Virus record (IMG/VR): IMGVR_UViG_2778261447_000004
Coordinates: 1-18,950 of that record
Strand: one strand, 5' to 3'
Source: a virus
Lineage: Duplodnaviria > Heunggongvirae > Uroviricota > Caudoviricetes
Length of the DNA stretch: 18,950 nt
This document shows, in pieces, positions 1-18,234 of this stretch. The number at the start of each line of letters is the position of its first letter. Position 1 is the stretch's first letter. The notes beneath the pieces are model-generated. The model was not told where the DNA came from. It searched no databases and saw nothing but the letters and a program-made list of their open reading frames with translations. The translations under genes were made by a program, and so were the position numbers.

Positions 1-46
1 AGGTCGCTGTCTTCACAGCTTACGAACCTGAGGAGTAAGAGACCAG

Positions 47-66
47 GCGAGGGAGAAATCCCTCGC
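47..66. other. Perfect 8-bp inverted repeat gcgaggga/tccctcgc with a 4-nt loop (GAAA on +, UUUC on -); possible terminator-like hairpin 77 nt beyond the stop of the minus-strand lipoprotein gene
   Basis: Stem and loop read directly from the sequence. No clean U-tract follows on either strand, so terminator function is uncertain. Confidence 0.25.
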
Positions 67-142
67 CACCTCTGATGTGTCAGGCATTCTCAACGCACCC
101 GCACTTAACCCGCTTCGGCTGTTCCTTAGTTTGTCCTGATTT

Positions 143-496
143 TTATTTATTACTAATACATGATTTAATTCCTTGAATCCTCTTGTTTTTTCCATTGGTA
201 GGATCTAACACACCTCGAAGAGAATAAAAATCAATAGTGGTAGAGCCGTCTGCTGACTTATAAATGTCGGCATTATCTGCAACTGCTAATACACTGTAAT
301 ATTTACCAATTTTTTGAGAAGTGATAGTATACAAGAGAGGTACACGTTGCCACTCACTGAGAATGCATTCTTGTATTTCTTGTGGTGGAGAATTTGTTTT
401 AAATGAAATGATAATATCCTGCTCTTCTCTATAATTATAAGGGTTTACGCATCCAGAAATTGCGAAAGAAAACAGAAGAATAATGATCCTGTTCAT
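143..496 (-). CDS. Small lipoprotein (117 aa), function unknown; AT-rich accessory gene
   Basis: ATG at 496 preceded by AGAGG. N-terminus MNRIIILLFSFAISGCVN is a signal peptide with lipobox ISGC, and +2 residue Val suggests outer-membrane sorting. Visibly AT-rich. The ORF track's upstream extension to 526 lacks a ribosome-binding site. Confidence 0.6.
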   Translation of the reverse strand: MNRIIILLFSFAISGCVNPYNYREEQDIIISFKTNSPPQEIQECILSEWQRVPLLYTITSQKIGKYYSVLAVADNADIYKSADGSTTIDFYSLRGVLDPTNGKNKRIQGIKSCISNK

Positions 497-558
497 TTTT
501 TTGCCTCTTTTGAAAATATTACTCAATTATTTTAGTTGCGGTGTGTTATAAGCATTAA

Positions 559-858
559 CTATAAAATATTAGATTCATAATTTTGTCCGCCGTGGTAAAC
601 GCCAGCGATAAAGACTTTATTGCCATCAACGGCAAAAGCAATAATCGTTCTGTGTCGGAAATGAGTTACCCGCATCCCCTGGCGAATATCATCGCGTTTA
701 TTGCCCCGATGCGGGAATGTAGAAAACCCATCAAGATAATCAAGAAGCGCATTGGCATAATTGTCAGCAATGACGCTTCCTGCTTTCTCCGTTATATATC
801 TGTGCAGGTTTATTATCTGCTGTTCGGCCTCGGGGGTAATGATGACTTCATATGTCAT
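559..858 (-). CDS. parE: Type II toxin, ParE/RelE superfamily (99 aa)
   Basis: About 100 aa, basic, with ParE-like composition. Starts 5 nt after the stop of an upstream ribbon-helix-helix antitoxin ORF on the same strand, the canonical antitoxin-then-toxin layout. Family assignment is from memory. Confidence 0.7.
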   Translation of the reverse strand: MTYEVIITPEAEQQIINLHRYITEKAGSVIADNYANALLDYLDGFSTFPHRGNKRDDIRQGMRVTHFRHRTIIAFAVDGNKVFIAGVYHGGQNYESNIL

Positions 859-863
859 GCAGA

Positions 864-1121
864 TTACTTCCCGGATCGAATCGCGGCGCGAACCTGTGAA
901 ATGGAGCGTCCGTTGTTTGGATTTTCGCGGATAGAATCAAGAGAGGGGGCGGCTGAATGCGTTAACCACGCTTCGATTGCTTTATCGCGCTCATTCAGTG
1001 CACGAAGCCCTTCACGAATGACCTCGCTTTCTGAAGCATAGGCACCGGAAGCCACACGGGCGCGCACCATGTCAGCCATCTCGTTAGTTAATGTAATGCT
1101 GAATTGTTGGGTTGTACGCAT
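864..1121 (-). CDS. parD: Type II antitoxin, ParD/CopG-like ribbon-helix-helix (85 aa)
   Basis: Internal ATG at 1121 preceded by GTGAGG. Product MRTTQQFSITLTNEMADMVRARVASGAYASESEVIREGLRALNER fits the ribbon-helix-helix antitoxin pattern (strand, helix, G-x-S turn, helix). Immediately precedes the toxin ORF. Confidence 0.7.
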   Translation of the reverse strand: MRTTQQFSITLTNEMADMVRARVASGAYASESEVIREGLRALNERDKAIEAWLTHSAAPSLDSIRENPNNGRSISQVRAAIRSGK

Positions 1122-1202
1122 GGTAAACCTCACGGAGTAGGATAGAACACTATTCGATGATAGCACGCTGCCTGTTGACGACAACAGAAATCAGAGACAA
1201 TA
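1122..1202. promoter_or_regulatory. Divergent promoter/operator region between the minus-strand toxin-antitoxin operon and the plus-strand DUF968-rusA-Q genes
   Basis: Plus strand: TTGACG (1174-1179), 17-bp spacer, CAATAT (1197-1202). Minus strand: TTGTCG, 16-bp spacer, TATCAT upstream of the antitoxin. Both are weak-to-moderate sigma70 matches found by eye. Confidence 0.3.
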
Positions 1203-1256
1203 TTGCCGCACGCCAGCCTGAACAACTGGCACCTGCTGCGCCAGCAGAGAAAACAA

Positions 1257-1529
1257 ATGGCGCACAATACCAAAAATCACAATTCTGATGCCGTTCGTGC
1301 CAGCAGGCATGGGCGGCGTTCGCGCGTATTTAAAACCGACTGGTACCAACACCCTCCATGCACTGAAGAACAGGCCGAATGGCTGATTCAGTGTTACCGC
1401 AGACACGGATACGAGATTAAGAAAGCCCTCAGCCTCGATTATCGTCACTGGATAATCTCCGTCAGGCTTCCTTACTCAGAACGCCCACCGCGTCCGTCCC
1501 GCACATACCAGCAACGTATCTGGAGGTAA
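1257..1529 (+). CDS. Hypothetical basic protein (90 aa), nin-region ORF
   Basis: Open frame ending 1 nt before the GTG start of the next gene. ATG at 1257 has only a weak ribosome-binding site; a TTG at 1203 is the alternative start. No family recognised. Confidence 0.35.
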   Translation: MAHNTKNHNSDAVRASRHGRRSRVFKTDWYQHPPCTEEQAEWLIQCYRRHGYEIKKALSLDYRHWIISVRLPYSERPPRPSRTYQQRIWR

Positions 1530-1530
1530 C

Positions 1531-2580
1531 GTGCGGGTATTACTTCGACCTGTTCCGGTACCGGAACTCGGGCTGGTGGTCCTTAAGCCGGGCCGTGAAT
1601 CCATGCAGGTATTTCATAATCCTCGTGTGCTGGTGGAGCCGGAACCGAAAAGCATGCGTGGTCTGCCGTCCGGAGTCGTGCCTGCCGTTCGCCAGCCGCT
1701 GGCGGAGGACAAATCATTACTGCCATTTTTCAGCAATGAGCGGGTGATTCGTGCTGCTGGCGGTGCTGGTGCACTGTCTGACTGGCTGTCGCGTCATGTC
1801 AAATCCTGCCAGTGGCCTCATGGTGACTATCATCACAGTGAAACCGTCATACATCGTTACGGTACCGGTGCGATGGTATTGTGCTGGCACTGCGACAATC
1901 AGTTGCGTGACCAGACATCCGAATCACTTGGGCAACTTGCTCAGCAAAACCTGTCAGCATGGATGATTGACGTCATCCGTCACGCAATGAATGGCGCACA
2001 GGAGCGGGAATTATCGCTGGCTGAATTGTACTGCTGGGCTGCTGTAAATGATGTAGTGGATGCCATGACCGAAAATATGGCGCGTCGAATCCTGAAGCTT
2101 CCGGGTGAAAAAATCCGCTCAATATACCGCGAGAGCGACATCATACCGGGAGAACAGACTGCCACCAGCATACTGAAGCAGCGCACAAAAAATATTGTGC
2201 TACCGCCTCACGCCCACCAGCAACAGAACCCACCACAGGAAAAGACGGTGGTCAGCATTGCCGTTGATCCGGAGTCTCCTGAATCTTTCATGAAGCGACC
2301 TAAACGTCGCCGTTGGGTAAATGAGAAATATACGCGCTGGGTAAAGACACAGCCGTGTGCGTGTTGTGGTAAGCCAGCCGACGATCCCCATCACCTGATT
2401 GGTCATGGTCAGGGCGGAATGGGAACAAAATCCCACGATATTTTTACGCTACCGCTGTGCCGGGAGCATCACAATGAACTTCATGCTGATCCGCTGGCAT
2501 TTGAAGAAAAGCATGGTTCCCAGATTGATTTAATTTTTCGTTTTCTTGATCACGCCTTTGCAACCGGCGTGCTCGGGTAA
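1531..2580 (+). CDS. DUF968-type prophage protein (349 aa) with C-terminal Cys/His HNH-like motif; resembles YdfU of the E. coli Qin prophage
   Basis: GTG start with GGAGG 5 nt upstream. C-terminus CACCGKPADDPHHLIGHGQGGMGTKSHDIFTLPLCREHHNELHA is a zinc-binding HNH-like signature typical of DUF968. The length matches my recollection of YdfU, but I am not certain of it. Confidence 0.75.
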   Translation: MRVLLRPVPVPELGLVVLKPGRESMQVFHNPRVLVEPEPKSMRGLPSGVVPAVRQPLAEDKSLLPFFSNERVIRAAGGAGALSDWLSRHVKSCQWPHGDYHHSETVIHRYGTGAMVLCWHCDNQLRDQTSESLGQLAQQNLSAWMIDVIRHAMNGAQERELSLAELYCWAAVNDVVDAMTENMARRILKLPGEKIRSIYRESDIIPGEQTATSILKQRTKNIVLPPHAHQQQNPPQEKTVVSIAVDPESPESFMKRPKRRRWVNEKYTRWVKTQPCACCGKPADDPHHLIGHGQGGMGTKSHDIFTLPLCREHHNELHADPLAFEEKHGSQIDLIFRFLDHAFATGVLG

Positions 2581-2592
2581 AAGAGGTTACTG

Positions 2593-2967
2593 ATGCGTAT
2601 AGAGTTTGTTTTGCCTTACCCGCCGACGGTGAACACCTACTGGCGACGTCGTGGCAGCACATATTTTGTATCAAAAGCCGGTGAGTGTTATCGCCGTGAT
2701 GTGGCACTTATTGTTCGCCAGCAGCGGCTGAAATTAAACCTGTCCGGAAGGCTGGCGATAAAGATTATTGCAGAGCCACCGGATAAGCGCCGTCGTGACC
2801 TGGACAATATCCTGAAAGCACCACTGGATGCGCTGACGCATGCCGGACTTCTCATAGACGACGAGCAGTTTGATGAAATCAATATTGTGCGCGGTCAGCC
2901 TGTTCCTGGTGGGCGGCTGGGCGTGAAGATTTACGAAATAATGCATGACGGGGAGGTCCAAAAATGA
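2593..2967 (+). CDS. rusA: Crossover junction endodeoxyribonuclease RusA (Holliday junction resolvase)
   Basis: Ribosome-binding site AAGAGG. Contains the RusA signature PDKRRRDLDN and DALTHAGLLIDDEQ, alignable to E. coli RusA (PDRRRRDLDN, DALTKAGFWLDDAQ). Typical position just upstream of Q. Confidence 0.85.
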   Translation: MRIEFVLPYPPTVNTYWRRRGSTYFVSKAGECYRRDVALIVRQQRLKLNLSGRLAIKIIAEPPDKRRRDLDNILKAPLDALTHAGLLIDDEQFDEINIVRGQPVPGGRLGVKIYEIMHDGEVQK

Positions 2968-3785
2968 AACTGGAAGATTTACCGAAATACTATTCCCCAA
3001 AATCGCCAGGCCTGACTGATGCATCCGTCTCGACGTCAAAAGATGCGCTGAGCATCACTGATGTGATGGCTGCGCAGGGTATGACACAAAACCGGGCTGA
3101 GATGGGATTTTCTGCGTTCCTGGGGAAAATGGGCATCAGTATGAATGACAGAACGCGGGCAACAGAATTACTGGCAGATTATGCACTCAGTCGGTGCGAT
3201 CGCGTGGCGGCGTTGAGAAAACTTCCGGCAGAAATAAAACCGACAGTGATGCGCATTATGGCTTCGTACGCTTTTGAGGATTATGCCCGTAGTGCAGCGA
3301 GTAAAAAACAGTGCCCTTGTTGCGGTGGGAAAAAATTTATTGAAAGCGTAGTTTTTACAAACAAGGTCCAGTATCCGGATGGTAAACCGCCGGTATGGGC
3401 AAAGTGTACAAAGGGTGTGTATCCGTCTTACTGGGAAGAATGGAAAAAAGTCCGGGAAGTGGTAAAAGTTGCCTGTCCTGAATGCGGGGGAAAGGGTGAG
3501 GTCTCCACCGCCTGTAATGATTGCCGTGGGCGTGGTGTCGCCATTCATCGTGAAGAGTCGGTAAAACGTGGTATGCCTGTTATCAGAGACTGCCAGCGTT
3601 GTGGTGGTCGTGGCTATGAAAGATTACCGTCAACAGAGGCGTTTAATGCCATATGCAAAGTGACGAGCGCTATCACTCTTGATACGTGGAAAAAATCAGT
3701 GAAGCGTTTTTACGATACGCTGGTGGTTCGGTTTGACATTGAAGAGTCATGGGCGGAGCGGCAGTTGAAGAGGGTAACGCGATAG
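2964..3785 (+). CDS. Late-gene antiterminator Q-like protein (273 aa) with four DnaJ-type CxxCxGxG zinc-finger repeats
   Basis: Start overlaps the rusA stop (ATGA). Lies immediately upstream of a PR'-like promoter and tR'-like terminator. Cys-rich repeats CPCCGGKK, CPECGGKG, CNDCRGRG, CQRCGGRG. Assignment is by synteny and Zn-finger content, not confirmed homology. Confidence 0.6.
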   Translation: MKLEDLPKYYSPKSPGLTDASVSTSKDALSITDVMAAQGMTQNRAEMGFSAFLGKMGISMNDRTRATELLADYALSRCDRVAALRKLPAEIKPTVMRIMASYAFEDYARSAASKKQCPCCGGKKFIESVVFTNKVQYPDGKPPVWAKCTKGVYPSYWEEWKKVREVVKVACPECGGKGEVSTACNDCRGRGVAIHREESVKRGMPVIRDCQRCGGRGYERLPSTEAFNAICKVTSAITLDTWKKSVKRFYDTLVVRFDIEESWAERQLKRVTR

Positions 3786-3790
3786 TGTTG

Positions 3791-3833
3791 TTGATTTTTC
3801 CCGAATCTGTGGTAAATTCGCACTAACGATGGG
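3791..3833 (+). promoter_or_regulatory. Late promoter PR'-like with extended -10 and sigma70 pause element (qut region)
   Basis: -35 TTGATT (3791-3796), 16-bp spacer, extended -10 TGgTAAATT (3810-3818), then AACGATGGG (3825-3833). Lambda PR' has the same architecture (GGGTAAATT followed by AACGATGGG). Confidence 0.7.
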
Positions 3834-3867
3834 CGTTTTATACCTGACGTTAAAAGATTTTTTACAA

Positions 3868-3890
3868 CCCGCCGCCGTGCGGGTTTTTTT
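3868..3890 (+). terminator. Rho-independent terminator, tR'-like
   Basis: Stem CCCGC (3868-3872), loop CGCCGT, stem GCGGG (3879-3883), then seven T (3884-3890). Lies about 65 nt after the predicted late transcription start. Confidence 0.75.
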
Positions 3891-4011
3891 GTGTCCGAAA
3901 AACAGCACAGGACGTTAAACGCGCTGGTGGTTGCGAATACAGGTCTTTCAGCTTGCTGGCTTTTTAGACAAGAGTTATTGGTATGTCATGTTAACCAGAA
4001 GGGAAAAAGAC

Positions 4012-4209
4012 ATGCTAAAACAGCAAGATATGACAGAAACCGCCAGAGTGGTGCTTAATGAATTAAGCGTCACCGAACCGGCGACCGTCGGGGAGATTGC
4101 GCAGAATACTTACCTTTCACGCGAATGCTGCCAGTTAATACTGACCCAGCTTGTTATGGCGGGCCTGGCAGATTATCAGTTCGGTTGTTACAGACGCCTT
4201 CCGCAGTGA
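4012..4209 (+). CDS. Small hypothetical protein, possibly winged-helix DNA-binding (65 aa from the ATG at 4012)
   Basis: ORF 3931-4209; the ATG at 4012 has GGGAAA upstream, with alternative starts at 3931, 3988 and 4030. Segment TVGEIAQNTYLSRECCQLILTQLVMAGLADY resembles a helix-turn-helix recognition helix plus wing. No family recognised. Confidence 0.4.
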   Translation: MLKQQDMTETARVVLNELSVTEPATVGEIAQNTYLSRECCQLILTQLVMAGLADYQFGCYRRLPQ

Positions 4210-4359
4210 AGGCTTTTTAATTTGTGGTAATGGGCGGCTGGTGGGTGTTAGCGGCACCTGCCAGCCATCTGCTCATGCGTTGGGGTCACAAGCAAACCTC
4301 AGGCCCATCTGCTTTGCGCAAAAGCGGTATGAGCCTATCAGAGAAGCGCTTATTGATCT

Positions 4360-5412
4360 ATGGCTAATACTGTAAAAATATCCAGTTGTGAGTTAATCAA
4401 CGCTGATTGCCTGGAATTTATCCAGACCTTACCGGAAAACTCTGTCGATCTGATTGTCACAGACCCGCCATACTTTAAAGTGAAACACGAAGGCTGGGAT
4501 AACCAGTGGAAGGGCGATGATGATTACCTGAAATGGCTGGATCAGTGTCTAGCGCAGTTCTGGCGGGTGTTAAAACCTGCCGGAAGCCTTTACCTGTTCT
4601 GCGGTCATCGTCTGGCATTTGATACCGAAATCATGATGCGTGAACGCTTTAATGTGCTGAACCACATTATCTGGGCGAAGCCGTCCGGACGATGGAACGG
4701 GTGCAATAAAGAAAGTCTGCGCGCATATTTTCCTGCCACAGAGCGCGTTCTGTTTGCTGAACATTACCAGGGGCCATATCGCGGCAAAAGTGACGGCTAT
4801 GCAGCAAAAGAAAGGGAACTCAAACAGCACATAATGGCACCGCTGATTTCGTATTTCAGGGATGCTCGTGCCGAACTGGGTATAACGGCAAAACAAATTG
4901 CCGAAGCCACAGGTAAGAAAAATATGGTTTCCCACTGGTTTGGTGCCAGTCAGTGGCAGTTGCCGAATGAGGCTGACTATCGGAAGTTACAGGCACTGTT
5001 TTCCCGTATAGCGGCAGAGAAGTTTCAGGAACAACAACTGGAACAACCACACCACCAGCTGGTGGCATCTTATGATTCACTGAATCGCAAATATTCTGAA
5101 TTGCTGGATGAGTTTAAATCTCTCCGGCGCTATTTCTCCGTATCAGTCTCCGTGCCTTATACCGATGTCTGGACGCATAAGCCCGTTCAGTTCTACCCGG
5201 GGAAACATCCGTGTGAGAAACCGGCGGATATGCTCAGACAAATAATCAATGCCAGTAGTCGACCAGGTGATCTGGTTGCTGATTTTTTTATGGGATCCGG
5301 TTCCACAATAAAAGCAGCAATGGCGCTGGGGCGTCGGGCCTTAGGTGTTGAGCTTGAGTCAGAGCGGTTTAATCAGACAGTGAAAGAGATAAACGAGCTG
5401 GTGGGGAAATAA
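4360..5412 (+). CDS. Orphan DNA methyltransferase, beta-class N6-adenine/N4-cytosine type (350 aa)
   Basis: Catalytic motif IV DPPY near the N-terminus (LIVTDPPYF) and SAM-binding motif I FxGxG near the C-terminus (DFFMGSGST). Motif IV before motif I is the beta-class order. No adjacent restriction endonuclease ORF. Confidence 0.85.
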
Positions 5413-5418
5413 TCTGGT

Positions 5419-5440
5419 GGCCACGTCAGGTGGCCTTTTT
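5419..5440 (+). terminator. Rho-independent terminator between methyltransferase and holin
   Basis: Stem GGCCAC (5419-5424), loop GTCAG, stem GTGGCC (5430-5435), followed by TTTTTATTT. Confidence 0.6.
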
Positions 5441-5479
5441 ATTTCCATTACACAGCACCCGCATCTGCGAGGTGGGGTT

Positions 5480-5695
5480 ATGAAATCCATGGATAAGTTA
5501 ACAACGGGTGTCGCCTATGGCACCTCGGCAGGCAGTGCCGGGTACTGGTTTTTGCAGTGGATTGATCAGGTTAGTCCGTCACAGTGGGCTGCTATTGGTG
5601 TGCTGGGGAGTCTGGCACTGGGCTTTCTGACTTATCTGACGAATCTGTATTTCAAAATTAAAGAGGATCGGCGCAAAGTGGCGCGGGGAGAGTAG
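5480..5695 (+). CDS. S: Pinholin/antiholin, phage 21 S-type (71 aa, dual-start MKSM)
   Basis: Product [71 protein letters not shown] is near-identical to phage 21 S21 as I recall it. Two in-frame starts (5480 and 5489) are separated by a Lys codon, the classic antiholin/holin dual-start motif. Confidence 0.9.
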
Positions 5696-5698
5696 GCG

Positions 5699-6010
5699 AT
5701 GAATAAAAAATACGAACTGGTTATTAAAGGGATAAGTAGTCACCCGGATAAGGTTGTGGTTACTGTGGCGCTGGAGAGCGACGGCTATCCGACGCTGTTT
5801 TCGCCGCATGTGGTGATTAAGCTTGATCGTGTTGACGGCGCAGCGCTGGAGCTTTATGAAGCAGAGGCGAAAAAACGAGCGAAGAAGATTTTTATGGATG
5901 CTGCTGCCGGGTTATGTGAAGCGTGGTCGTTGCCGGAAAAGCGCCTCCATTCAGAGGCGCGGTATACCATAAAAATTAACGGTTCAGATAACTCAATTGC
6001 TGGTTTTTAA
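5699..6010 (+). CDS. Hypothetical protein between holin and endolysin (103 aa); possibly YdfR/DUF1327-like
   Basis: ATG with GGAGAG upstream, 3 nt after the holin stop. Same position and length as YdfR in the Qin prophage lysis cassette as I recall it. Sequence identity not verified. Confidence 0.55.
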   Translation: MNKKYELVIKGISSHPDKVVVTVALESDGYPTLFSPHVVIKLDRVDGAALELYEAEAKKRAKKIFMDAAAGLCEAWSLPEKRLHSEARYTIKINGSDNSIAGF

Positions 6011-6246
6011 CCTTTTGTCTCAGTTGGCTTTCCAATATCTTTCATTGGTAGCAGCATTTCGATATTGCTTTTGATATATGGATTATCTGCATGTTCTGTT
6101 AATTGATAAATGATAGCATTTTTTTCATTCTGGTCTAATACAGAAAACATAACTGCAATCATATATTTAAGAGCCTCAATTTCTCCTGTTGTTGAGTTGG
6201 GGGATGAACAGTCCGCTGTAACATTAATAAAAGTTTCTTTTTTCAT
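6007..6246 (-). CDS. Hypothetical small protein (79 aa), AT-rich antisense gene inside the lysis cassette
   Basis: ATG at 6246 preceded by AAGGA with 7-nt spacing. Visibly AT-rich compared with neighbours. Convergent with the 103-aa ORF, with a 4-bp overlap at the stops. No family recognised. Confidence 0.5.
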   Translation of the reverse strand: MKKETFINVTADCSSPNSTTGEIEALKYMIAVMFSVLDQNEKNAIIYQLTEHADNPYIKSNIEMLLPMKDIGKPTETKG

Positions 6247-6270
6247 ATCAGATCCTTAGATGGGGTAGCT

Positions 6271-6332
6271 CAGCCAACCACCCGAGCCTTAACCGGAACG
6301 CCAGTGCCCACTACACTACTGGCGGGCTGAGG
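6271..6332. other. Nested inverted repeats in the intergenic region between the antisense small gene and the endolysin
   Basis: CTCAGCC (6271-6277) pairs with GGCTGAG (6326-6332). Inner pair GCCAGT / ACTGGC has a 12-nt loop. No U-tract; function unknown. Confidence 0.3.
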
Positions 6333-6370
6333 CTTTAACATATCCAGGGTTCAGAAAACGATAAATATCC

Positions 6371-6904
6371 ATGAGCACAAAAATCAGATACGGCCTGTCG
6401 GCTGCCGTTCTGGCGTTGATTGCTGCAGGTGCATCCGCTCCCGTCATTCTTGACCAGTTTCTGGACGAAAAAGAAGGTAATCACACTACGGCATACCGTG
6501 ATGGCTCCGGTATATGGACCATCTGTCGGGGTGCCACGATGGTGGATGGAAAACCCGTTTTTCCCGGTATGAAACTGTCGAAGGAAAAATGCGACCAGGT
6601 CAACGCTATCGAACGGGATAAGGCGCTGGCATGGGTGGAGCGCAATATTAAAGTTCCACTGACCGAAGCACAGAAAGCGGGTATTGCGTCATTCTGTCCC
6701 TATAACATTGGCCCCGGTAAGTGTTTCCCGTCGACGTTTTATAAGCGGCTTAATGCCGGTGATCGTAAAGGTGCCTGTGAGTCGATTCGCTGGTGGATTA
6801 AGGACGGTGGGCGTGATTGCCGCACACGTTCAAATAACTGCTACGGACAGGTTATTCGTCGTGACCAGGAAAGCGCATTAGCCTGTTGGGGGATAGATCA
6901 GTGA
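6371..6904 (+). CDS. R: SAR endolysin, T4-lysozyme-like muramidase (177 aa)
   Basis: N-terminal weakly hydrophobic Gly/Ala-rich signal-arrest-release segment [21 protein letters not shown]. Catalytic E-x8-D-x5-T triad in [16 protein letters not shown]. Pairs with a pinholin as in phage 21. Confidence 0.85.
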
Positions 6905-7365
6905 GAAGAGTAGTCGCGATTATCTCTGCTCTGGTTATCTGCATCATCGTCTGCCTGTCATGGGCTGTTAATCATTACCGTGATAACGCCATTACCTACA
7001 AAGCCCAGCGCGACAAAAATGCCAGAGAACTGAAGCTGGCGAACGTGGCAATTACTGACATGCAGATGCGTCAGCGTGATGTTGCTGCGCTCGATGCAAA
7101 ATACACGAAGGAGTTAGCTGATGCGAAAGCTGAAAATGATGCTCTGCGTGATGATGTTGCCGCTGGTCGTCGTCGGTTGCACATCAAAGCAGTCTGTCAG
7201 TCAGTGCGTGAAGCCACCACCGCCTCCGGCGTGGATAATGCAACCAGCCCCCGACTGGAAGACACCGCTGAACGGGATTATTTCACCCTCAGAGACCGAT
7301 TGATGACGATGCAGAAGCAACTGGAAGGGGCGCAGGAATATATCCGCACCCAGTGCATTAAGTAG
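6901..7365 (+). CDS. Rz: Spanin inner-membrane subunit Rz (i-spanin)
   Basis: GTG start overlapping the endolysin stop (GTGA). Product [44 protein letters not shown] is near-identical to lambda Rz. Confidence 0.85.
7121..7303 (+). CDS. Rz1: Spanin outer-membrane lipoprotein subunit Rz1 (o-spanin), embedded in Rz in the +1 frame
   Basis: Product [60 protein letters not shown] with lipobox VVGC and proline-rich stretch, near-identical to lambda Rz1. GGAG 7 nt upstream. Confidence 0.85.
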
Positions 7366-7388
7366 CCTTTTTGTTATCAGGAGAATGT

Positions 7389-7595
7389 ATGAAGAAATTA
7401 CAGGTAACCGCAAAGCTCTTTAATGGAAGAATCCCGTTCCGGATTTTACAGCGTGGTCGTGTTCTGGCTGAAGGTACATTCAGTGGTAAATGCACGGAAT
7501 GTTATTCACGAATATATGAAGTGGATGCCTCGGATGAAGATATAACCGTTGAGTGTAATGCCGGGATTGTATCGGCCACATTGCTTCATGGGTGA
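7389..7595 (+). CDS. Hypothetical small protein (68 aa); stand-alone copy of a domain repeated in the 286-aa ORF
   Basis: ATG at 7389 preceded by AGGAG. By-eye alignment: KKLQVTAKLFNGRIPFRILQRGRVLAEGTFSGK...YEVDASDEDITVE...GIVSATLL versus residues about 113-185 of the 7961-8821 product KKALLVTANQLSGRVDFQVRQGGRVLVNDAFVGR...YDVDADDQDISIS...GIVLTAELL. Confidence 0.55.
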   Translation: MKKLQVTAKLFNGRIPFRILQRGRVLAEGTFSGKCTECYSRIYEVDASDEDITVECNAGIVSATLLHG

Positions 7596-7624
7596 ATTGG
7601 GTTGTCGCTGGAGGATGCAGGCAA

Positions 7625-7825
7625 ATGAATTACCAACTGGCAAAACTTTATCGTGGTAAACATTTCGCAGGGTATGGGATTGCAGTTAATGGTGAGTTAC
7701 TGGAAGGGCAGCTTTCCGCCAGGACAGAGTCACGTGGAGGCGAGCCACCAACAGTCACTGTGACTTTCAGACTGACAGCAGAACATATCGAGAATCAGCC
7801 CGTCATTCAACTGAACAGGGTGTGA
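7625..7825 (+). CDS. Hypothetical small protein (66 aa); weaker, possible third copy of the same domain
   Basis: ATG at 7625 with GGAGGA 9 nt upstream; a GTG at 7592 is the alternative start. AKLYRGKHFAGYGIAVNGELLEGQLSAR loosely aligns with AKLFNGRIPFRILQRGRVLAEGTFSGK of the preceding ORF. Confidence 0.5.
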   Translation: MNYQLAKLYRGKHFAGYGIAVNGELLEGQLSARTESRGGEPPTVTVTFRLTAEHIENQPVIQLNRV

Positions 7826-7832
7826 GGTATTT

Positions 7833-7961
7833 ATGCCATCACGAATCCCACGTGCCTGCCGTAAGCGTGGATGCGCAGGTACAATCACAGACAGTTCTGG
7901 TTACTGCGATAAACATCGTGTGCGACCGTGGTTGCTCGGTGTCTTTGTCAGGAGGTTTTGA
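7833..7961 (+). pseudogene. Short ORF (42 aa) resembling the N-terminal zinc-binding region of a phage HNH endonuclease; probable truncated remnant
   Basis: ATG at 7833 with GAGG 6 nt upstream. Product MPSRIPRACRKRGCAGTITDSSGYCDKHRVRPW... has the C-x3-GC ... GYC-x2-H pattern seen at the N-terminus of terminase-associated HNH endonucleases. Frame ends after 42 codons with TGA overlapping the ATG of the next ORF, where composition becomes AT-rich. Confidence 0.4.
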
Positions 7962-8821
7962 TGAAAGAGTTGCAAAAAATTAATTCAATAATGGAAAGGT
8001 TAAGTGCTCTTGAGCGTAAGCTGGACGATTGTGGAAAGCTGTGTGTTGAAAAGCAAAATGAGCTTTACCGGGAATTTTTTACAATCGTAAGTGAGCTGAT
8101 GCCAATTGTTAATAACTGCCTGATGACATCCAGATTTTTTAATGTCGATGCTACTACATCCAGAAAATTTTCTGTGAAAATTCAAGAAAGAGTTTCTGGT
8201 AGTGTGACAAGAGAGATGGCTGAACAGTTGGTGGCAATGAGCAATAAAACAAAAAGAAAAAAGGCATTGCTTGTAACAGCAAATCAGCTTTCAGGGCGCG
8301 TTGACTTTCAGGTCAGACAGGGTGGGCGTGTACTGGTAAATGATGCGTTCGTTGGACGTAGCTTTAGTCCTTACTCGATAAAATATGATGTTGATGCAGA
8401 TGATCAGGATATCAGCATTTCCTGGAAATCTGAGACAGCAGGGATTGTATTAACAGCAGAGTTGTTGAGTGATGATAAAAATGATGTCCAGCATCATTTG
8501 GACGAAAAGAATCATATTTCTGAAATTTGTATGAAGCCACGCAGCGGAATGACTTTATTGTCACGCACTCTTGCTGCTGGCTTTTCTGCACCGGAAAAAC
8601 GTGTGCTTCTGGTAGTGCCTGAAGATGCAGATATTCGACCACTGAATGGCTGTGATGTTATTAGTGCAAAAACATTGCATACCCGCGTCATTCCTGTACC
8701 GGATGTGGTCATTATTGATGATGTTGAGAAATGCAAGTCTGTTTCCTCAACTGCCACAATCAAGCGAATTTTACGTTGTAGCACGTCGGCTGTTGTATTC
8801 CGGAAGCAGTTACATAACTAA
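7961..8821 (+). CDS. Hypothetical protein (286 aa): N-terminal predicted helical region, central domain paralogous to the 68-aa ORF, unique C-terminal region
   Basis: ATG at 7961 with AGGAGG 5 nt upstream. Strongly AT-rich relative to the phage backbone. Internal domain homology described under 7389-7595. No family recognised. Confidence 0.65.
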   Translation: MKELQKINSIMERLSALERKLDDCGKLCVEKQNELYREFFTIVSELMPIVNNCLMTSRFFNVDATTSRKFSVKIQERVSGSVTREMAEQLVAMSNKTKRKKALLVTANQLSGRVDFQVRQGGRVLVNDAFVGRSFSPYSIKYDVDADDQDISISWKSETAGIVLTAELLSDDKNDVQHHLDEKNHISEICMKPRSGMTLLSRTLAAGFSAPEKRVLLVVPEDADIRPLNGCDVISAKTLHTRVIPVPDVVIIDDVEKCKSVSSTATIKRILRCSTSAVVFRKQLHN

Positions 8822-8944
8822 CCAGTTTTGTTTTGCAGAACATCCTCAACTAAAAGCTTATAGAAAGAGAGCCTGAGATATTTTTTCTGTCTCTCGTAGT
8901 TGTTTGTTTTTTTCGAACAGGCTTACAACTTACAGGATATAAAC

Positions 8945-9394
8945 ATGCAAGAAGAAGCAAATAAAATTCTTGTTGATTTATTGCAGAAGGCCAGCGATGG
9001 AATTGATTCCGCCATTGCATTCAGTCAGGCTCAGATTCCGGATGTTGTTCATCAGTTGCTGGTATGGAATATGGTTGATAGCCTGATTAAAACATTAATA
9101 GCCATTTCAACAATCCCTCTGGTTTTCTGGTTTATGAAGAAGCAGTGCCAAAGAGTTGAGACAGGTAAAATCGGTGATGAAGGATATTCATGGGAGAAGG
9201 GAAATCCCAAATACAGGCCGACAATGGTTTGGGATAGCAAAGGTGATATTAATCTTCTTATCGTGCCATTGGTTGGAGTTTTGACTATGTGGGGGATTTT
9301 TATTATTTGTGCAGTAACCAATATGACATGGTTAAAAATCTGGCTGGCACCTAAGTTATATCTAATCGAATACGCAGCATCACTAATTAAATAG
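8945..9394 (+). CDS. Hypothetical membrane protein with two predicted transmembrane helices (149 aa)
   Basis: ATG at 8945 with AGGA 7 nt upstream. Hydrophobic segments LIKTLIAISTIPLVFWFM and INLLIVPLVGVLTMWGIFIICAV. AT-rich. Followed by terminator-like hairpins. Confidence 0.6.
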   Translation: MQEEANKILVDLLQKASDGIDSAIAFSQAQIPDVVHQLLVWNMVDSLIKTLIAISTIPLVFWFMKKQCQRVETGKIGDEGYSWEKGNPKYRPTMVWDSKGDINLLIVPLVGVLTMWGIFIICAVTNMTWLKIWLAPKLYLIEYAASLIK

Positions 9395-9451
9395 TCCATT
9401 ACAAAAGCCATTCGCTACAGAGTGGCTTTGATAATGGCTTATGCCCTGTAC

Positions 9452-9477
9452 GGGATAACTTAACTGATATCCCTTTT
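9452..9477 (+). terminator. Putative rho-independent terminator closing the accessory cassette
   Basis: Stem GGGATA (9452-9457), 10-nt loop, stem TATCCC (9468-9473), then TTTT. A second weaker hairpin AAAGCCA...TGGCTTT lies at 9403-9428. Confidence 0.45.
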
Positions 9478-9688
9478 AACGGATAAAGGTATTCAAGCCT
9501 GACACATCATGCGCTGTATCGTCGCCGTATTCCCGTATTAACAGAGACCGTAGCCCGACGGGGAACTCCTCTGCGCGAGTGTGCGGGAATAATCAAAAAC
9601 GATGCACACCGGGTTTTACTGTGCTGACAGACGCAGGGTTACCCTCATAGTCGCTTTTCCGGTGCGATGGTGGAAGAAACCGGGATGT

Positions 9689-9883
9689 TTATTCATCATC
9701 TCTTTGGATTGATGTATATGCTCTCTTTTCTGACGTTAGTCTCCGACGGCAGGCTTCAATGACCCAGGCTGAGAAATTCCCGGACCCTTTTTGCTCAAGA
9801 GCGATGTTAATTTGTTCAATCATTTGGTTAGGAAAGCGGATGTTGCGGGTTGTTGTTCTGCGGGTTCTGTTCTTCGTTGACAT
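9689..9883 (-). CDS. Small ribbon-helix-helix-like DNA-binding protein (64 aa); resembles DUF3950/YlcI-type prophage proteins
   Basis: Product MSTKNRTRRTTTRNIRFPNQMIEQINIALEQKGSGNFSAWVIEACRRRL fits a ribbon-helix-helix pattern after a basic N-terminus. Only a weak ribosome-binding site. Family attribution is from memory. Confidence 0.5.
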   Translation of the reverse strand: MSTKNRTRRTTTRNIRFPNQMIEQINIALEQKGSGNFSAWVIEACRRRLTSEKRAYTSIQRDDE

Positions 9884-10031
9884 GAGGTTGCCCCGTATTC
9901 AGTGTCGCTGATTTGTATTGTCTGAAGTTGTTTTTACGTTAAGTTGATGCAGATCAATTAATACGATACCTGCGTCATAATTTATTATTTGACGTGGTTT
10001 GATGGCGTAGATGCACGTTGTGACATGTAGA

Positions 10032-10046
10032 TGATAATTATTATCA
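10032..10046. promoter_or_regulatory. Palindrome TGATAATTATTATCA matching the 7-1-7 Fur-box motif, about 35 bp upstream of cosN
   Basis: GATAAT-T-ATTATC is a perfect inverted repeat around a single central base (10033-10045). With flanking T and A it matches the Fur 7-1-7 consensus tGATAATnATTATCa. It could also be a chance AT-rich palindrome or a packaging-related site. Confidence 0.25.
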
Positions 10047-10081
10047 TTTTGCGGGTCCTTTCCGGCATGTGGACCGTTACG

Positions 10082-10093
10082 GGGCGTCGACCT
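10082..10093. other. cosN cohesive-end site (12-nt overhang), lambda-like
   Basis: GGGCGTCGACCT followed by CGCGGTTTTTCGCTATTTATGA matches the lambda left end GGGCGGCGACCTCGCGGGTTTTCGCTATTTATGA with one mismatch in the 12-mer. Preceded by GTTACG as at the lambda right end. Nu1 and A genes follow. Confidence 0.7.
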
Positions 10094-10309
10094 CGCGGTT
10101 TTTCGCTATTTATGAGATTTTTTGAGGGGGTGGTTGTTGTTTAATTGTTTGGTATATCTAATTGATAAGTAAGGTGAAAATAAAATAAATACAACAACCT
10201 TACGATGTGCTTTGATGTCATTAATGTGAAAAAATTAAATGATATCAAATGGTTTTGTAAAAACACATGGTTGTTGTATCGCTTTTTATCGATGACTTAT
10301 GGAGAGGAG

Positions 10310-10816
10310 ATGGCCTTTTTATTGAATAAAAGTGATATGGCCTCCTCCATCGGTATCTCTGTTCAGGCATTTGATAAATGGGGCGTTCCTCCTGTCGAGC
10401 GTCGGGGGAGGGAAGTTTTTTATGACGTTAAAACTGTACTGGAGATAGATCGCGAGCGGCGACAACACAATCATAGAACACCTGATGACGGGGGCGATCT
10501 GGAGGAAAGGCTGCTTCGGGCCAGAGCTGAACTGACAGAAGAACAGGCCGTAGCTCAAAAACTTAAAAATCAGGTAACCGAAGGTAAGCTCATCGATTCA
10601 GACTTCTGCGTTTTCGCCCTCAGCAAGCTGGCGATGGCATTGTCCAGTACGCTTGATTCTATTCCGTTATCCATGCAGCGACAGTTCCCGGATTTAACGC
10701 CACGTCATCTTGACCATCTGAAAACCCTTATTGCGAAGGGCGCAAATCAGTGTGCGCGGGCAGGGGATAAATTACCGGATTTGCTGGATGAATATATCAG
10801 AGCAACAACTGAATAA
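10310..10816 (+). CDS. nu1: Terminase small subunit Nu1
   Basis: ATG at 10310 with GGAGAGGAG upstream. Alignable to lambda Nu1: ALSKLAMALSSTLDSIPLSMQRQFPDLTPRHLDHLK versus VLSRIAGEIASILDGLPLSVQRRFPELENRHVDFLK. Stop overlaps the start of A as in lambda. Confidence 0.8.
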   Translation: MAFLLNKSDMASSIGISVQAFDKWGVPPVERRGREVFYDVKTVLEIDRERRQHNHRTPDDGGDLEERLLRARAELTEEQAVAQKLKNQVTEGKLIDSDFCVFALSKLAMALSSTLDSIPLSMQRQFPDLTPRHLDHLKTLIAKGANQCARAGDKLPDLLDEYIRATTE

Positions 10817-12716
10817 TCTGATGGCTGCCGTTTCGGTTGCGCTGCAGCCTCTGGTCAGGGTTGTACCGATGACGGCAGTTGAATGGGCTGACCAGTATTA
10901 TTATCTGCCGAAAGAATCCTCATACGGTGACGGCGAATGGAAAACGCTGCCGTTCCAGATCGCCATCATGAACAGTATGGGGAATGATCAGGTCCGCACT
11001 GTTAATCTGATTAAATCTGCCCGTATTGGTTATACAAAGATGTTGCTGGGGGTGGTCGGGTATTTTATTGAGCATAAATCCCGAAACAGTCTGCTTTTTC
11101 AGCCCACGGATTCTGCCGCTGAAGATTTTATGAAGTCTCACGTGGAGACGACGATTAGGGATGTGCCATGTCTGAAAGACCTTTCTCCATGGCTGGGGCG
11201 TAAACATCGTGACAATACTCTCACGCTGAAACGCTTTTCATCGGGTGTGGGCTTCTGGTGCCTGGGTGGTGCGGCAGCAAAAAACTACCGTGAAAAATCC
11301 GTGGACGTGGTCTGCTATGACGAACTCTCATCGTTTGAACCTGATGTTGAAAAAGAGGGCTCGCCAACCCTGCTGGGGGATAAGCGTATTGAGGGCTCTG
11401 TATGGCCAAAATCCATTCGCGGCTCGACGCCTAAAATCAAAGGCTCCTGCCAGATCGAAAAAGCCGCTAACGAGTCGGCACATTTCATGCGTTTTTATGT
11501 GCCCTGCCCGCACTGTGGGGAGGAGCAGTATCTGAAATTTGGCGATGAATCCACGCCTTTTGGCCTTAAATGGGAGAAGGACAGCCCCGAAAGCGTTTTC
11601 TACCTTTGTGAGCATCATGGCTGTGTGATCCATCAGTCTGAGCTTGACCAGAGTAACGGGCGGTGGATCTGTGAAAACACGGGCATGTGGACCCGTGACG
11701 GCCTGATGTTTTTCAGCGCCCGGGGTGATGAAATTCCGCCGCCGCGTTCCATCACTTTCCATATCTGGACGGCGTACAGTCCGTTCACCACCTGGGTACA
11801 GATTGTCTATGACTGGCTGGATGCACTGAAAGATCCCAACGGCCTGAAAACCTTTGTGAACACCACGCTGGGCGAGACCTGGGAAGAGGCCGTGGGCGAA
11901 AAACTCGATCACCAGGTACTGATGGATAAGGTTGTGCGTTACACGGCGGCGGTGCCTGCCCGGGTGGTTTATCTGACGGCGGGCATTGACTCGCAGCGAA
12001 ACCGTTTTGAGATGTATGTCTGGGGATGGGCTCCGGGAGAGGAAGCCTTTCTGGTGGATAAAATCATTATTATGGGGCGTCCCGATGAGGAAGAGACGCT
12101 GTTACGTGTGGATGCAGCGATCAACAAAAAATACTGCCATGCAGACGGAACCGAAATGACCATTTCCCGTGTCTGCTGGGACATCGGGGGGATCGATGGA
12201 GAAATCGTTTATCAGAGGTCAAAAAAACACGGTGTTTTCCGGGTGCTGCCGGTAAAAGGCGCATCTGTCTATGGCAAGCCGGTGATCACCATGCCAAAAA
12301 CCCGCAATCAGCGGGGCGTGTATCTGTGTGAAGTGGGGACAGACACCGCAAAAGAAATTCTCTATGCCCGTATGAAAGCCGCTCCCACGCCTGCGGATGA
12401 ATCCACGTCGTATGCCATCCGTTTTCCTGATGATCCGGAGATTTTTTCGCAGACAGAGGCGCAGCAACTGGTCGCGGAAGAGCTTGTGGAGAAGTGGGAA
12501 AAAGGAAAGATGCGTCTGCTGTGGGATAACAAAAAGCGGCGTAACGAAGCGCTGGACTGCCTGGTGTATGCCTACGCGGCATTACGTGTGTCCGTGCAAC
12601 GCTGGCAGCTTGATCTGGCTGTACTGGCAAAATCCCGGGAAGAAGAGACGACCCGGCCAACCCTTAAAGAACTGGCAGCGAAGCTGTCCGGAGGAGTGAA
12701 TGGTTACAGTCGCTGA
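10788..12716 (+). CDS. A: Terminase large subunit gpA (642 aa)
   Basis: Starts MNISEQQLNN (lambda MNISNSQVNR). Long collinear identity to lambda gpA including TAVEWAD, YYLPKES, MKRF..G.GFWCLGG and CPHCGEEQYLKFGD. Confidence 0.95.
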   Translation: MNISEQQLNNLMAAVSVALQPLVRVVPMTAVEWADQYYYLPKESSYGDGEWKTLPFQIAIMNSMGNDQVRTVNLIKSARIGYTKMLLGVVGYFIEHKSRNSLLFQPTDSAAEDFMKSHVETTIRDVPCLKDLSPWLGRKHRDNTLTLKRFSSGVGFWCLGGAAAKNYREKSVDVVCYDELSSFEPDVEKEGSPTLLGDKRIEGSVWPKSIRGSTPKIKGSCQIEKAANESAHFMRFYVPCPHCGEEQYLKFGDESTPFGLKWEKDSPESVFYLCEHHGCVIHQSELDQSNGRWICENTGMWTRDGLMFFSARGDEIPPPRSITFHIWTAYSPFTTWVQIVYDWLDALKDPNGLKTFVNTTLGETWEEAVGEKLDHQVLMDKVVRYTAAVPARVVYLTAGIDSQRNRFEMYVWGWAPGEEAFLVDKIIIMGRPDEEETLLRVDAAINKKYCHADGTEMTISRVCWDIGGIDGEIVYQRSKKHGVFRVLPVKGASVYGKPVITMPKTRNQRGVYLCEVGTDTAKEILYARMKAAPTPADESTSYAIRFPDDPEIFSQTEAQQLVAEELVEKWEKGKMRLLWDNKKRRNEALDCLVYAYAALRVSVQRWQLDLAVLAKSREEETTRPTLKELAAKLSGGVNGYSR

Positions 12717-12906
12717 ACTGCAGGCGCTGCGTCAGGCGCGCCTTGATTTATTAACCGGTAAACGGGTGGTGTCTGTCCAGAAAGATGGTCGCAGAATTGA
12801 ATATACGGCGGCTTCTCTGGATGAGCTTAACCGGGCGATCAATGATGCGGAGTCGGTACTGGGGACAACCCGACGTCGCCGTCGTCCGCTGGGAGTGAGG
12901 TTATGA
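12700..12906 (+). CDS. W: Head-tail joining protein gpW (68 aa)
   Basis: LLTGKRVVSVQKDGRRIEYTAAS matches lambda gpW [23 protein letters not shown]. Same length as lambda W; overlaps the end of A. Confidence 0.85.
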   Translation: MVTVAELQALRQARLDLLTGKRVVSVQKDGRRIEYTAASLDELNRAINDAESVLGTTRRRRRPLGVRL

Positions 12907-15990: not shown

Positions 15991-16026
15991 AGCCAGTGCT
16001 GACCATCAATAGGAGGTTTTTACAAT

Positions 16027-16374
16027 ATGGTAACGAAAACCATCACTGAACAGCGTGCGGAAGTACGTATTTTTGCCGGTAATGATCCGGCTCATACCGC
16101 CACAGGCAGCAGCGGGATTTCCTCGCCAACACCGGCACTGACGCCCCTGATGCTGGATGAAGCCACCGGGAAACTGGTGGTCTGGGACGGACAGAAAGCC
16201 GGTAGTGCGGTTGGCATACTGGTACTGCCGCTTGAAGGCACAGAGACGGTGCTGACGTATTACAAGTCGGGAACCTTTGCGACGGAGGCAATCCACTGGC
16301 CTGAAAGTGTGGATGAACACAAAAAGGCCAACGCCTTTGCCGGGAGTGCCCTGAGTCACGCGGCGCTGCCGTAA
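16027..16374 (+). CDS. D: Head decoration protein gpD
   Basis: DPAHTATGSSG...LTPLMLDEATGKLVVWDG...AVGILV...YYKSGTF matches lambda gpD. AGGAGG upstream. Confidence 0.9.
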   Translation: MVTKTITEQRAEVRIFAGNDPAHTATGSSGISSPTPALTPLMLDEATGKLVVWDGQKAGSAVGILVLPLEGTETVLTYYKSGTFATEAIHWPESVDEHKKANAFAGSALSHAALP

Positions 16375-16381
16375 CACGTTA

Positions 16382-16403
16382 TCAGGCCACCGCGGTGGCC
16401 TGA
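16382..16403. other. Perfect 22-bp palindrome TCAGGCCACCGCGGTGGCCTGA between D and E (stem-loop; possible attenuator or RNA-processing site)
   Basis: Sequence is its own reverse complement. Lies 8 nt after the D stop. Weakly T-rich downstream (ctgatttctg). Confidence 0.3.
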
Positions 16404-16431
16404 CTGATTTCTGAATGAAAGGAACTGATTT

Positions 16432-17460: not shown

Positions 17461-17468
17461 TCCGTGAG

Positions 17469-17497
17469 CGGGGGCGAAATGCCCCCGTGTCTTTTTT
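17469..17497 (+). terminator. Rho-independent terminator or attenuator immediately after the major capsid gene
   Basis: Stem CGGGGGC (17469-17475), loop GAAAT, stem GCCCCCG (17481-17487), then TGTCTTTTTTC. Confidence 0.6.
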
Positions 17498-17511
17498 CAA
17501 AGAGGCCTGAT

Positions 17512-18223: not shown

Positions 18224-18234
18224 AAGGGGGATGT

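Follow-up and report, generated by a model that had tools for sequence, protein, structure and literature searches.

Chromosomal and plasmid ParD–ParE toxin–antitoxin systems with solved structures include those of Caulobacter (ParD1–ParE1, 3KXE), Mesorhizobium (ParD3–ParE3, 5CEG and 6X0A), M. tuberculosis (ParDE1, 8C24), V. cholerae (ParD2–ParE2, 7R5A) and P. aeruginosa (ParDE, 6XRW). ParE toxins inhibit DNA gyrase (PMC11925232, PMC6368863), the V. cholerae parDE2 operon is autoregulated (PMC10776004), and the ParESO-CopASO pair stabilizes the excised Shewanella prophage CP4So (PMC8706911). Phages also encode small periplasmic exclusion lipoproteins, of which Llp blocks FhuA (PMC9586334) and Rtp45 blocks LptD (PMC12685063). 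Here we analyzed a stretch of 18,950 nucleotides (nt) from a virus of the Caudoviricetes (IMG/VR record IMGVR_UViG_2778261447_000004, positions 1 to 18,950; hereafter, the window), in which three minus-strand open reading frames (ORFs), at the coordinates given in an initial annotation of this DNA (143–1202), encode a ParD antitoxin, a ParE toxin and a lipoprotein precursor of 117 amino acids (aa). We consider it quite probable that these genes represent two independently acquired morons, a canonical parDE operon and a low-GC gene for an envelope lipoprotein, that abut in the hokD–[rem]–ydfU slot of a lambdoid prophage. The parDE pair itself is known: it carries annotations in hundreds of genomes as well as in PHROGs, and RefSeq already lists it as a type II toxin–antitoxin system; for this pair, our analysis mainly confirms existing annotation.

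The parDE operon, the lipoprotein gene and their boundaries

The parDE cassette, which comprises a promoter, parD and parE, is a 645-bp minus-strand segment (560–1204) that is mobile between phages and whose extent is given by the interval in common with the Shiga toxin (Stx) phage ArgO145. The neighborhood of the cassette in ArgO145 is entirely different and lies near the integrase end, and the cassette is also found in an E. coli O158 prophage from which both hokD and the lipoprotein gene are absent. Homology with both of these loci stops exactly at the parE stop codon. Among 5426 complete E. coli genomes, 328 carry the cassette (~6%, at a coverage of at least 80%), always on the chromosome; many of these carriers are Shiga toxin-producing E. 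coli (STEC) O26, O111 or O145, and ArgO145 and two other Stx2a-converting phages were among the matches listed. In contrast, the lipoprotein gene is present in only 7 of the same 5426 genomes, each time between hokD and parE. Because parDE occurs without the lipoprotein gene in ArgO145 and in lipoprotein-free prophages, with homology breaking at the parE stop, and because the two differ so widely in the number of genomes that carry them, we regard parDE and the lipoprotein gene as separate units.

The lipoprotein gene lies in an AT-rich moron cassette (120–559, minus strand) that is absent from hok–rem–ydfU prophages and from most parDE-bearing prophages. The left limit of this cassette is set by homology to locus L019, which ends at position 119, and the right limit by homology to the parDE-only loci L002 and L003, which begins at position 560. 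GC content is 0.30–0.37 in the lipoprotein gene, 0.45–0.55 in parDE and 0.55–0.59 in the phage genes to the right. On either side, positions 1–119 and 1236–1700 are common to prophages with the order hok/gef – rem – small ORF – ydfU – rusA – Q (BLAST against four related loci), and the segment in between (120–1235) thus replaces rem. The first 38 nt of the window (1–38, plus strand) are the 3′ end of the type I toxin gene hokD, which was absent from the initial annotation; their translation gives the last 11 residues of the protein (VAVFTAYEPEE) and the stop codon. This gene is the left neighbor and lies outside the cassette, and its presence indicates that the cassette fills the rem slot of a Qin-like hokD–rem–ydfU backbone. 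RefSeq annotates hokD at the matching place in strain GF60 and in five further genomes. GF60, which is 99.8% identical to the window over positions 1–1600, has the annotated order hokD / hypothetical / RelE/ParE toxin / ParD antitoxin / hypothetical / DUF968.

Within the cassette, parD (864–1121, minus strand) encodes an 85-aa ribbon-helix-helix (RHH) antitoxin that starts at an ATG preceded by GTGAGG; the longest possible parD ORF, 106 aa from a TTG start (864–1184), is a mechanical maximum. In hidden Markov model (HMM) searches, ParD scored 32.1 bits against PF03693 (cut-off 21) and 53.8 bits against TIGR02606 (cut-off 46.2), and it belongs to phrog_6494, labeled ‘antitoxin’ (E = 1.7e-56). 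Residues 6–51 align with the RHH regions of the solved ParD chains 3kxe, 7ycv, 7b22 and 8c24, and the protein (WP_001260977.1) is identical in three other genomes. Exactly 5 nt (859–863) separate the parD stop codon from the ATG of parE (559–858, minus strand). The 99-aa product of parE scored 41.3 bits against PF05016 (cut-off 23), aligning over profile positions 1–89 of 89, and belongs to phrog_5232, labeled ‘toxin’ (E = 1.8e-41). These scores and coordinates bear out the initial annotation in its description of an RHH antitoxin and a ParE/RelE-fold toxin 5 nt apart that run, together with the lipoprotein gene, antisense to phage genes, namely the DUF968/YdfU gene, rusA and the Q antiterminator gene. 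Upstream of parD, a promoter-like site (TTGTCG-16 nt-TATCAT with a TG; 1157–1184, minus strand) recurs in two other cassette contexts, and its presence in all three implies that the cassette carries its own promoter. A palindrome with 5-bp arms (TGTTG-TCGT-CAACA; 1173–1186) overlaps the −35 element and is a candidate operator that does not exceed chance expectation, and a search for operators upstream of parD gave no significant repeats.

PF05016 spans both ParE and RelE, and the branch to which the toxin belongs was therefore tested separately. When a profile built from 20 ParE homologs was compared with the PDB, the only matches at E ≤ 0.01 were ParE chains of ParDE complexes (6X0A, 7YCS, 5CEG and 8C24). 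The AlphaFold2 (AF2) model of the toxin (pLDDT 87.2, pTM 0.77) has the expected fold, with an N-terminal strand, a hairpin of two long helices and a three-stranded sheet. In a Foldseek search with this model, ranks 1–22 were all ParE-type toxins with TM-scores of 0.75–0.83, including Mesorhizobium ParE3, PfiT, M. tuberculosis ParE1, PrpT, V. cholerae ParE2, P. aeruginosa ParE, Caulobacter ParE1 and E. coli O157 ParE2, while RelBE2, YoeB, RelE and YafQ appeared only from rank 23 on (TM-scores of 0.5–0.65). Furthermore, a homolog of the toxin is named ‘toxin ParE1/3/4’ by JGI. Judged from the predicted structure, the toxin is closer to the ParE branch than to the RelE-type RNases. The absence of a ParE/RelE fold, by which the initial annotation would have been refuted, was not observed.

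Pairwise comparisons with homologous loci show purifying selection on each of the three genes: parD has 0 nonsynonymous changes, the ratio of nonsynonymous to synonymous divergence (dN/dS) of parE is 0.09–0.17, and that of the lipoprotein gene is 0.095. For this reason, and in the case of parD and parE also because the HMM cut-offs are passed, we conclude that the three ORFs are real genes and did not arise by chance.

Variation within the operon was observed at several points. Relative to L002, L003 and L020 (559–1121), parD is 99.2–99.6% identical (synonymous divergence, dS, 0.016–0.033) and parE is 90–95% identical (dS 0.15–0.35), and this step in divergence points to recombination, with a breakpoint close to where parD and parE meet. 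ParE varies in its C-terminal tail as well, which reads NYESNIL in the window and SYEADFL in the common allele. In O157:H7 genomes, only the parD half of the cassette finds a match (~87% identity, query positions 287–634), which is annotated as a ParD family antitoxin; this half may be a related antitoxin that has a different toxin, or an orphan. Finally, the plus strand opposite parE and parD contains a 152-aa ORF (583–1041) that no independent evidence supports as a gene and that is in all likelihood an antisense shadow of parDE.

The lipoprotein and the phrog_914 family

The lipoprotein precursor gene (143–496, minus strand) encodes 117 aa of the phrog_914 family from an ATG that matches the RefSeq annotation, with a ribosome-binding site, AGAGG, at 504–508 (minus strand). 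A −10-like hexamer, TAAAAT (529–534, minus strand), lies 33–38 nt upstream of the ATG. When the upstream regions of seven contexts were aligned, a −10-like element occupied a common position in 7 of 7, reading TGCTAnnAT in four and CTAAAAT in the window (534–529), with CTTAAAT also seen. The encoded protein begins with MNRIIILLFSFAISGC, which contains a basic n-region (MNR), a hydrophobic stretch (IIILLFSFA) and a lipobox (I-S-G-C16) followed by V17 at the +2 position. By the E. coli sorting rule, valine at +2 predicts an outer-membrane lipoprotein, and the mature protein of ~100 residues is predicted from its sequence to be anchored in the outer membrane and to face the periplasm. The GC content of the gene, the lipobox and the residue other than aspartate at +2 are thus in keeping with the AT-rich, outer-membrane-type lipoprotein gene that the initial annotation had described.

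The AF2 model of the lipoprotein (pLDDT 81.7, pTM 0.75) has a beta-alpha-beta4-alpha fold in which C44 is part of the first long helix and C113 of the C-terminal one, a placement in the model that suits a probable stapling disulfide in the periplasm. A fold search returned generic alpha+beta matches only (the BamC N-domain, Flpp3/DUF3568 and DcrB), and a search of PDB sequences with the lipoprotein, both singly and as a profile, gave nothing meaningful. The window protein had no match in Pfam (E ≤ 0.1), NCBIfam or PADLOC, and the weak matches to DUF6491 and LPAM_1 reflect lipoprotein signal peptides. For the serum-resistance-type factor suggested in the initial annotation, a Bor/Iss identity found no support, there being no Pfam match, and we rejected identity with Bor (PF06291) or TraT, since 0 of 32 family members match and no Pfam family rises above noise. 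Membership of the Cor family (phrog_1119) was likewise rejected: the window protein does not match, only 5 of 32 relatives match weakly (best E = 3.3e-4), and hhalign comparisons with the Cor proteins of N15 and HK022 align only 20–21 residues of signal peptide and lipobox.

The window lipoprotein instead matches phrog_914, labeled ‘unknown function’ (E = 3.2e-25), as do 32 of 32 aligned members. Among 5.8 billion proteins, a word-indexed search detected 12 relatives (in E. coli, Rahnella, Serratia and metagenomes), and 1.84 billion cluster representatives, searched exhaustively with a profile, yielded only 43 at E ≤ 1e-3. The family is therefore small, and it appears restricted to phage and prophage contexts. 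Across the 32 members, which are as little as 21% identical, the lipobox cysteine, C44 and C113 are invariant. D77 is also conserved, and R23, W49 and R106 are near-invariant.

Most of the members surveyed are encoded within the tail-tip genes of lambda-like siphophages or directly behind them, often close to cor. In a first survey, the homolog was flanked by tail genes M and L in Rahnella and one metagenome contig (M/x/L; L004, L005, L006 and L008), preceded M, presumably between H and M, in L026, and lay between K and I in the metagenomic prophages L023 and L027 and in Serratia phage vB_SspS_OS31. The Serratia fonticola homolog is found among tail chaperone and tape-measure genes, and that of L011 lies downstream of J, directly behind a 74-aa ORF whose product shares 45% identity with N15 Cor. 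A second survey covered 27 further IMG/VR and GTDB loci, which were classified on the basis of tblastn searches with reference proteins (tail, Cor, ParDE, HokD and YdfU). Fifteen of these are downstream of J (nine with gp22/gp23/cor homologs in between), four are inside H–M–L, and three are unclear. The remaining five have the order hokD / lipoprotein / parE / parD / small ORF / ydfU, and the proteins encoded by all of these match that of the window at 87% identity or more. Placement in the tail module thus holds for 19 of the 27 loci of the second survey and for 8 of 10 earlier loci, whereas the window copy is beside parDE, and no homolog below ~62% identity is next to parDE.

In nine loci (L038, L039, L042, L044–L046, L048, L049 and L056), a cor homolog and the phrog_914 gene are both found downstream of J, after N15 gp22/gp23-like genes. 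The two genes are directly adjacent in L011 (3153–3848), and elsewhere ~1.7 kb of uncharacterized DNA lies between them. The Rahnella copy coincides with a dip in GC content and has a promoter-like sequence before the gene (TTGCCT-16 nt-TATCAT with a TG) and a hairpin with a T-run after it. At least five different insertion sites are represented among phrog_914 loci. With these variable sites, the low GC content and its own −10-like element, the lipoprotein gene behaves as a phage moron.

One homolog, P0006, was observed on short contigs, flanked by a resolvase gene and by partition genes of the SopA/SopB type (L015, 137–3370), which suggests that its carrier is a plasmid or plasmid-prophage. 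A tblastn search of PLSDB with this plasmid-context homolog gave no match, and a tblastn search of the phage collection gave a single weak match, to Serratia phage OS31.

Proposed functions and competing explanations

By analogy with characterized ParDE systems, a sigma-70-type promoter would drive expression of parD and then parE. A ParD dimer would repress its own promoter via its N-terminal RHH domain, while the C-terminal part of ParD would wrap and neutralize ParE. Were labile ParD no longer replenished, freed ParE would be expected to poison DNA gyrase; the likely outcome would be addiction to, or stabilization of, the prophage, with abortive-infection defense as a possible second role. 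On this analogy, parDE is likely to be a toxin–antitoxin pair of a known kind, a gyrase poison that stabilizes its prophage.

For the lipoprotein, we regard a prophage-expressed cell-envelope factor as the most likely role. Our preferred mechanism is that it may bind an outer-membrane phage receptor from the periplasmic side and thereby cause superinfection exclusion, as Cor, Llp and Rtp45 do. Surface exclusion, which the initial annotation had also suggested, is plausible from genomic context alone. We favor an exclusion role because phrog_914 genes persistently adjoin receptor-binding tail genes and cor, but we put forward the specific idea of a receptor-blocking factor, which draws on the analogy with these proteins, only tentatively. 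If it is right, the co-occurrence of phrog_914 genes with cor implies a target different from that of Cor. A broader proposal, which we offer with the same reserve, is that phrog_914 could be an unrecognized exclusion family directed at a receptor unlike Cor's that travels with tail-tip genes, and that in a small E. coli lineage it was relocated behind the constitutively transcribed parDE next to hokD, forming a ‘self-preservation’ islet of two addiction toxins and an exclusion factor.

Other explanations account for parts of these data. The three genes might be one functional three-component system, co-transcribed from the parD promoter, with the lipoprotein as an effector, a sensor or an extra immunity component. 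They share a strand, only 62 nt without a predicted terminator separate parE from the lipoprotein gene, and wherever this lipoprotein allele (at least 87% identity) was found, in 7 E. coli genomes and 5 IMG/VR contigs, it directly follows parE. These 12 linked cases, however, are one lineage; 321 of the 328 parDE-bearing genomes lack the lipoprotein gene, every homolog below ~62% identity is away from parDE and mostly in tail modules, the homology break falls exactly at the parE stop, GC content differs sharply, and the lipoprotein gene retains its own −10-like element. On the strength of the distribution, the genomic context and the homology break, we rejected such a module, which we consider highly improbable, and the lipoprotein gene, which the initial annotation had placed downstream of the toxin–antitoxin module, is a mobile gene apart from that module that normally resides among phage tail genes. 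Despite its ParE label, the toxin could be a RelE-type, ribosome-dependent mRNA endonuclease or have some other non-gyrase activity: both PF05016 and the RefSeq name embrace RelE as well as ParE, the structures of RelE, YoeB and YafQ were also detected, if more weakly, and conserved arginine and histidine residues line the beta-sheet (R51, R55, R59, R63, H66 and R70). We consider this quite unlikely, since the 22 best structural neighbors are all ParE-type with TM-scores well above those of the RNase toxins, the PDB profile search yields ParE chains alone, the JGI name of the homolog is that of a ParE, and the partner is a ParD-family RHH antitoxin (TIGR02606) and not RelB, YefM or DinJ.

The role of parDE could also differ from that proposed here, if the pair served mainly as an abortive-infection system that protects the lysogen from other phages and not as a prophage addiction module. 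Toxin–antitoxin systems are known to give abortive infection, the cassette moves between unrelated phage backbones, and the prophage accessory slot beside the toxin gene hokD is a frequent place for prophage defense genes. We judge this to be unlikely: the lack of any match to PADLOC models leaves a defense role without database support, we found no phage-defense phenotype for ParDE in the literature, and the documented precedent found in this analysis for a prophage ParE-family toxin, ParESO-CopASO in CP4So, is one of maintenance (PMC8706911). About equally unlikely is that the lipoprotein is a lysogenic-conversion factor that aids the host outside phage–phage conflict, whether by serum or complement resistance like that of Bor/Iss, envelope-stress tolerance, adhesion or periplasmic enzyme inhibition. 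Like bor in lambda, its gene is a moron of a prophage, rich in AT and equipped with a promoter-like element of its own, its fold class is common to the unrelated bacterial lipoproteins named above, and one homolog sits on a plasmid-like contig by a resolvase gene and SopAB. Against this stand the lack of any match above noise to Bor, TraT or another Pfam family among the 32 members, the seeming confinement of the family to phage and prophage contexts, and its persistent siting by tail-tip and receptor-binding genes and cor, which is the pattern of exclusion lipoproteins and is unlike that of Bor near the lysis genes.

Several points weigh against the interpretation that we prefer, in which a gyrase-poisoning parDE operon and an independently transcribed lipoprotein gene lie side by side. 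Gyrase inhibition is not universal among ParE-fold toxins, and PrpT and PfiT, both structural neighbors of the window ParE, have other reported roles. The lipoprotein promoter has a poor −35 element, and the window shows no predicted terminator between parE and the lipoprotein gene; co-transcription is thus possible, and read-through from the parD promoter may add to lipoprotein expression. PADLOC-DB v2 models match none of ParD, ParE, the lipoprotein and the neighboring small ORF. Finally, we found no experimental study in the literature of any phrog_914 member, of this parDE allele, of the ArgO145 toxin–antitoxin pair or of prophage ParDE in STEC.

As regards significance, the parDE part of the locus shows a 645-bp toxin–antitoxin cassette with its own promoter hopping between lambdoid and Stx-phage backbones. 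We speculate that a gyrase-poisoning toxin in an SOS-inducible prophage could in principle link loss of the antitoxin to induction of the prophage or of Stx. The lipoprotein finding is the more useful one, because the placement of phrog_914 genes by tail-tip genes and cor gives a concrete hypothesis, exclusion by receptor masking. If this hypothesis holds, phrog_914 would extend the known exclusion families by one and might reveal a new receptor used by temperate siphophages of the Enterobacterales.

The phage backbone and comparison with known systems

To the right of the cassette, the plus-strand genes are a small ORF (1257–1529; phrog_1212), the DUF968/YdfU gene (1531–2580), rusA (2593–2967) and a Q-type antiterminator gene (2964–3785). 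The small ORF, of phrog_1212 and unknown function, was always observed directly 5′ of the DUF968/YdfU gene (in the window, GF60, JE86, the O158 prophage and PPompW-type prophages), and the two look like a conserved gene pair. To the left, a GC-rich hairpin, GGCGAGGGA-GAAA-TCCCTCGCC (46–67), lies between the convergent hokD and lipoprotein genes; it was read from the sequence, forms in an RNA fold of positions 30–160, and falls within the shared hok backbone (1–119, with the boundary set by BLAST). No canonical intrinsic terminator was found at this hairpin. An Rfam scan of the window at gathering thresholds returned nothing, presumably because the end of hokD left at the window edge is too short for hok/sok models, and a tRNA scan of 1–18,950 found no tRNA genes.

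The type I toxin gene hokD and the type II pair parDE thus stand side by side in this prophage. The GF60 prophage encodes, in addition, another toxin of the RelE/ParE family, paired with a ‘stability determinant’ antitoxin, in its early-left region, near the immunity region (L001, 5553–6029), as well as a YdaS/YdaT pair and a QueH gene directly upstream of hokD. None of the complete E. coli genomes covers at least 80% of the window (1–18,950), the best reaching 74% at ~91% identity. Despite the near-identity of GF60 over the first 1600 positions, its Q/lysis/head region differs from that of the window, a pattern typical of lambdoid mosaicism.

Compared with the solved ParDE systems, the window operon has the same order of antitoxin and then toxin, a few nt apart, and typical sizes (85 and 99 aa); the RHH region of ParD (residues 6–51) aligns, and ParE superposes with TM-scores of 0.75–0.83, but it is only 13–22% identical to the solved toxins. 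Furthermore, in contrast to plasmid and superintegron ParDE, the window cassette has lambdoid prophages and Stx phages as its carriers. In this respect, it resembles ParESO-CopASO of CP4So, PfiT-PfiA of Pf phage (9W3A) and PaaA2-ParE2 of E. coli O157:H7 (5CW7), which are also prophage-encoded ParE-fold toxins with a likely role in prophage maintenance or control, and PfiT and ParE2 are among the top structural neighbors of the window ParE. In contrast to CopA, PfiA and PaaA2, however, the window antitoxin is a classical ParD (TIGR02606), and no PaaR-type third regulator gene is adjacent.

The lipoprotein is similar in kind to Cor (phi80, N15 and HK022), Llp (T5) and Rtp45 (Rtp), which are likewise small phage lipoproteins with one or more internal cysteines, tail-tip or receptor-binding neighbors and an independent transcription unit, and some phrog_914 members lie beside cor. 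It differs from Cor in that the similarity of phrog_914 is limited to the signal peptide and lipobox, in the length of the mature protein (~100 versus ~60 aa) and in its predicted beta-alpha-beta4-alpha fold, and from all three in that the window gene is far from tail genes. Lambda Bor/Iss is a prophage moron that encodes an outer-membrane lipoprotein of ~100 aa and is expressed in lysogens; phrog_914 differs from it in having no family match and in its typical genomic position.

Finally, the initial annotation had drawn a parallel to the relBE–hokD cluster at the equivalent position of the Qin prophage. The parallel holds for the backbone, which is homologous, with hokD on the left, a small ORF, DUF968/ydfU and Q on the right, and a type II pair beside hokD. 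It fails for the placement and orientation of the pair. In K-12 Qin, the order is relB > relE > hokD > rem > ydfU > ydfT, all co-directional, such that relBE is upstream of hokD and reads in the same direction. In the window, parDE and the lipoprotein gene are instead on the other side of hokD, downstream of it in the rem slot and antisense, and the pair encodes a toxin of the ParE type and not RelE.

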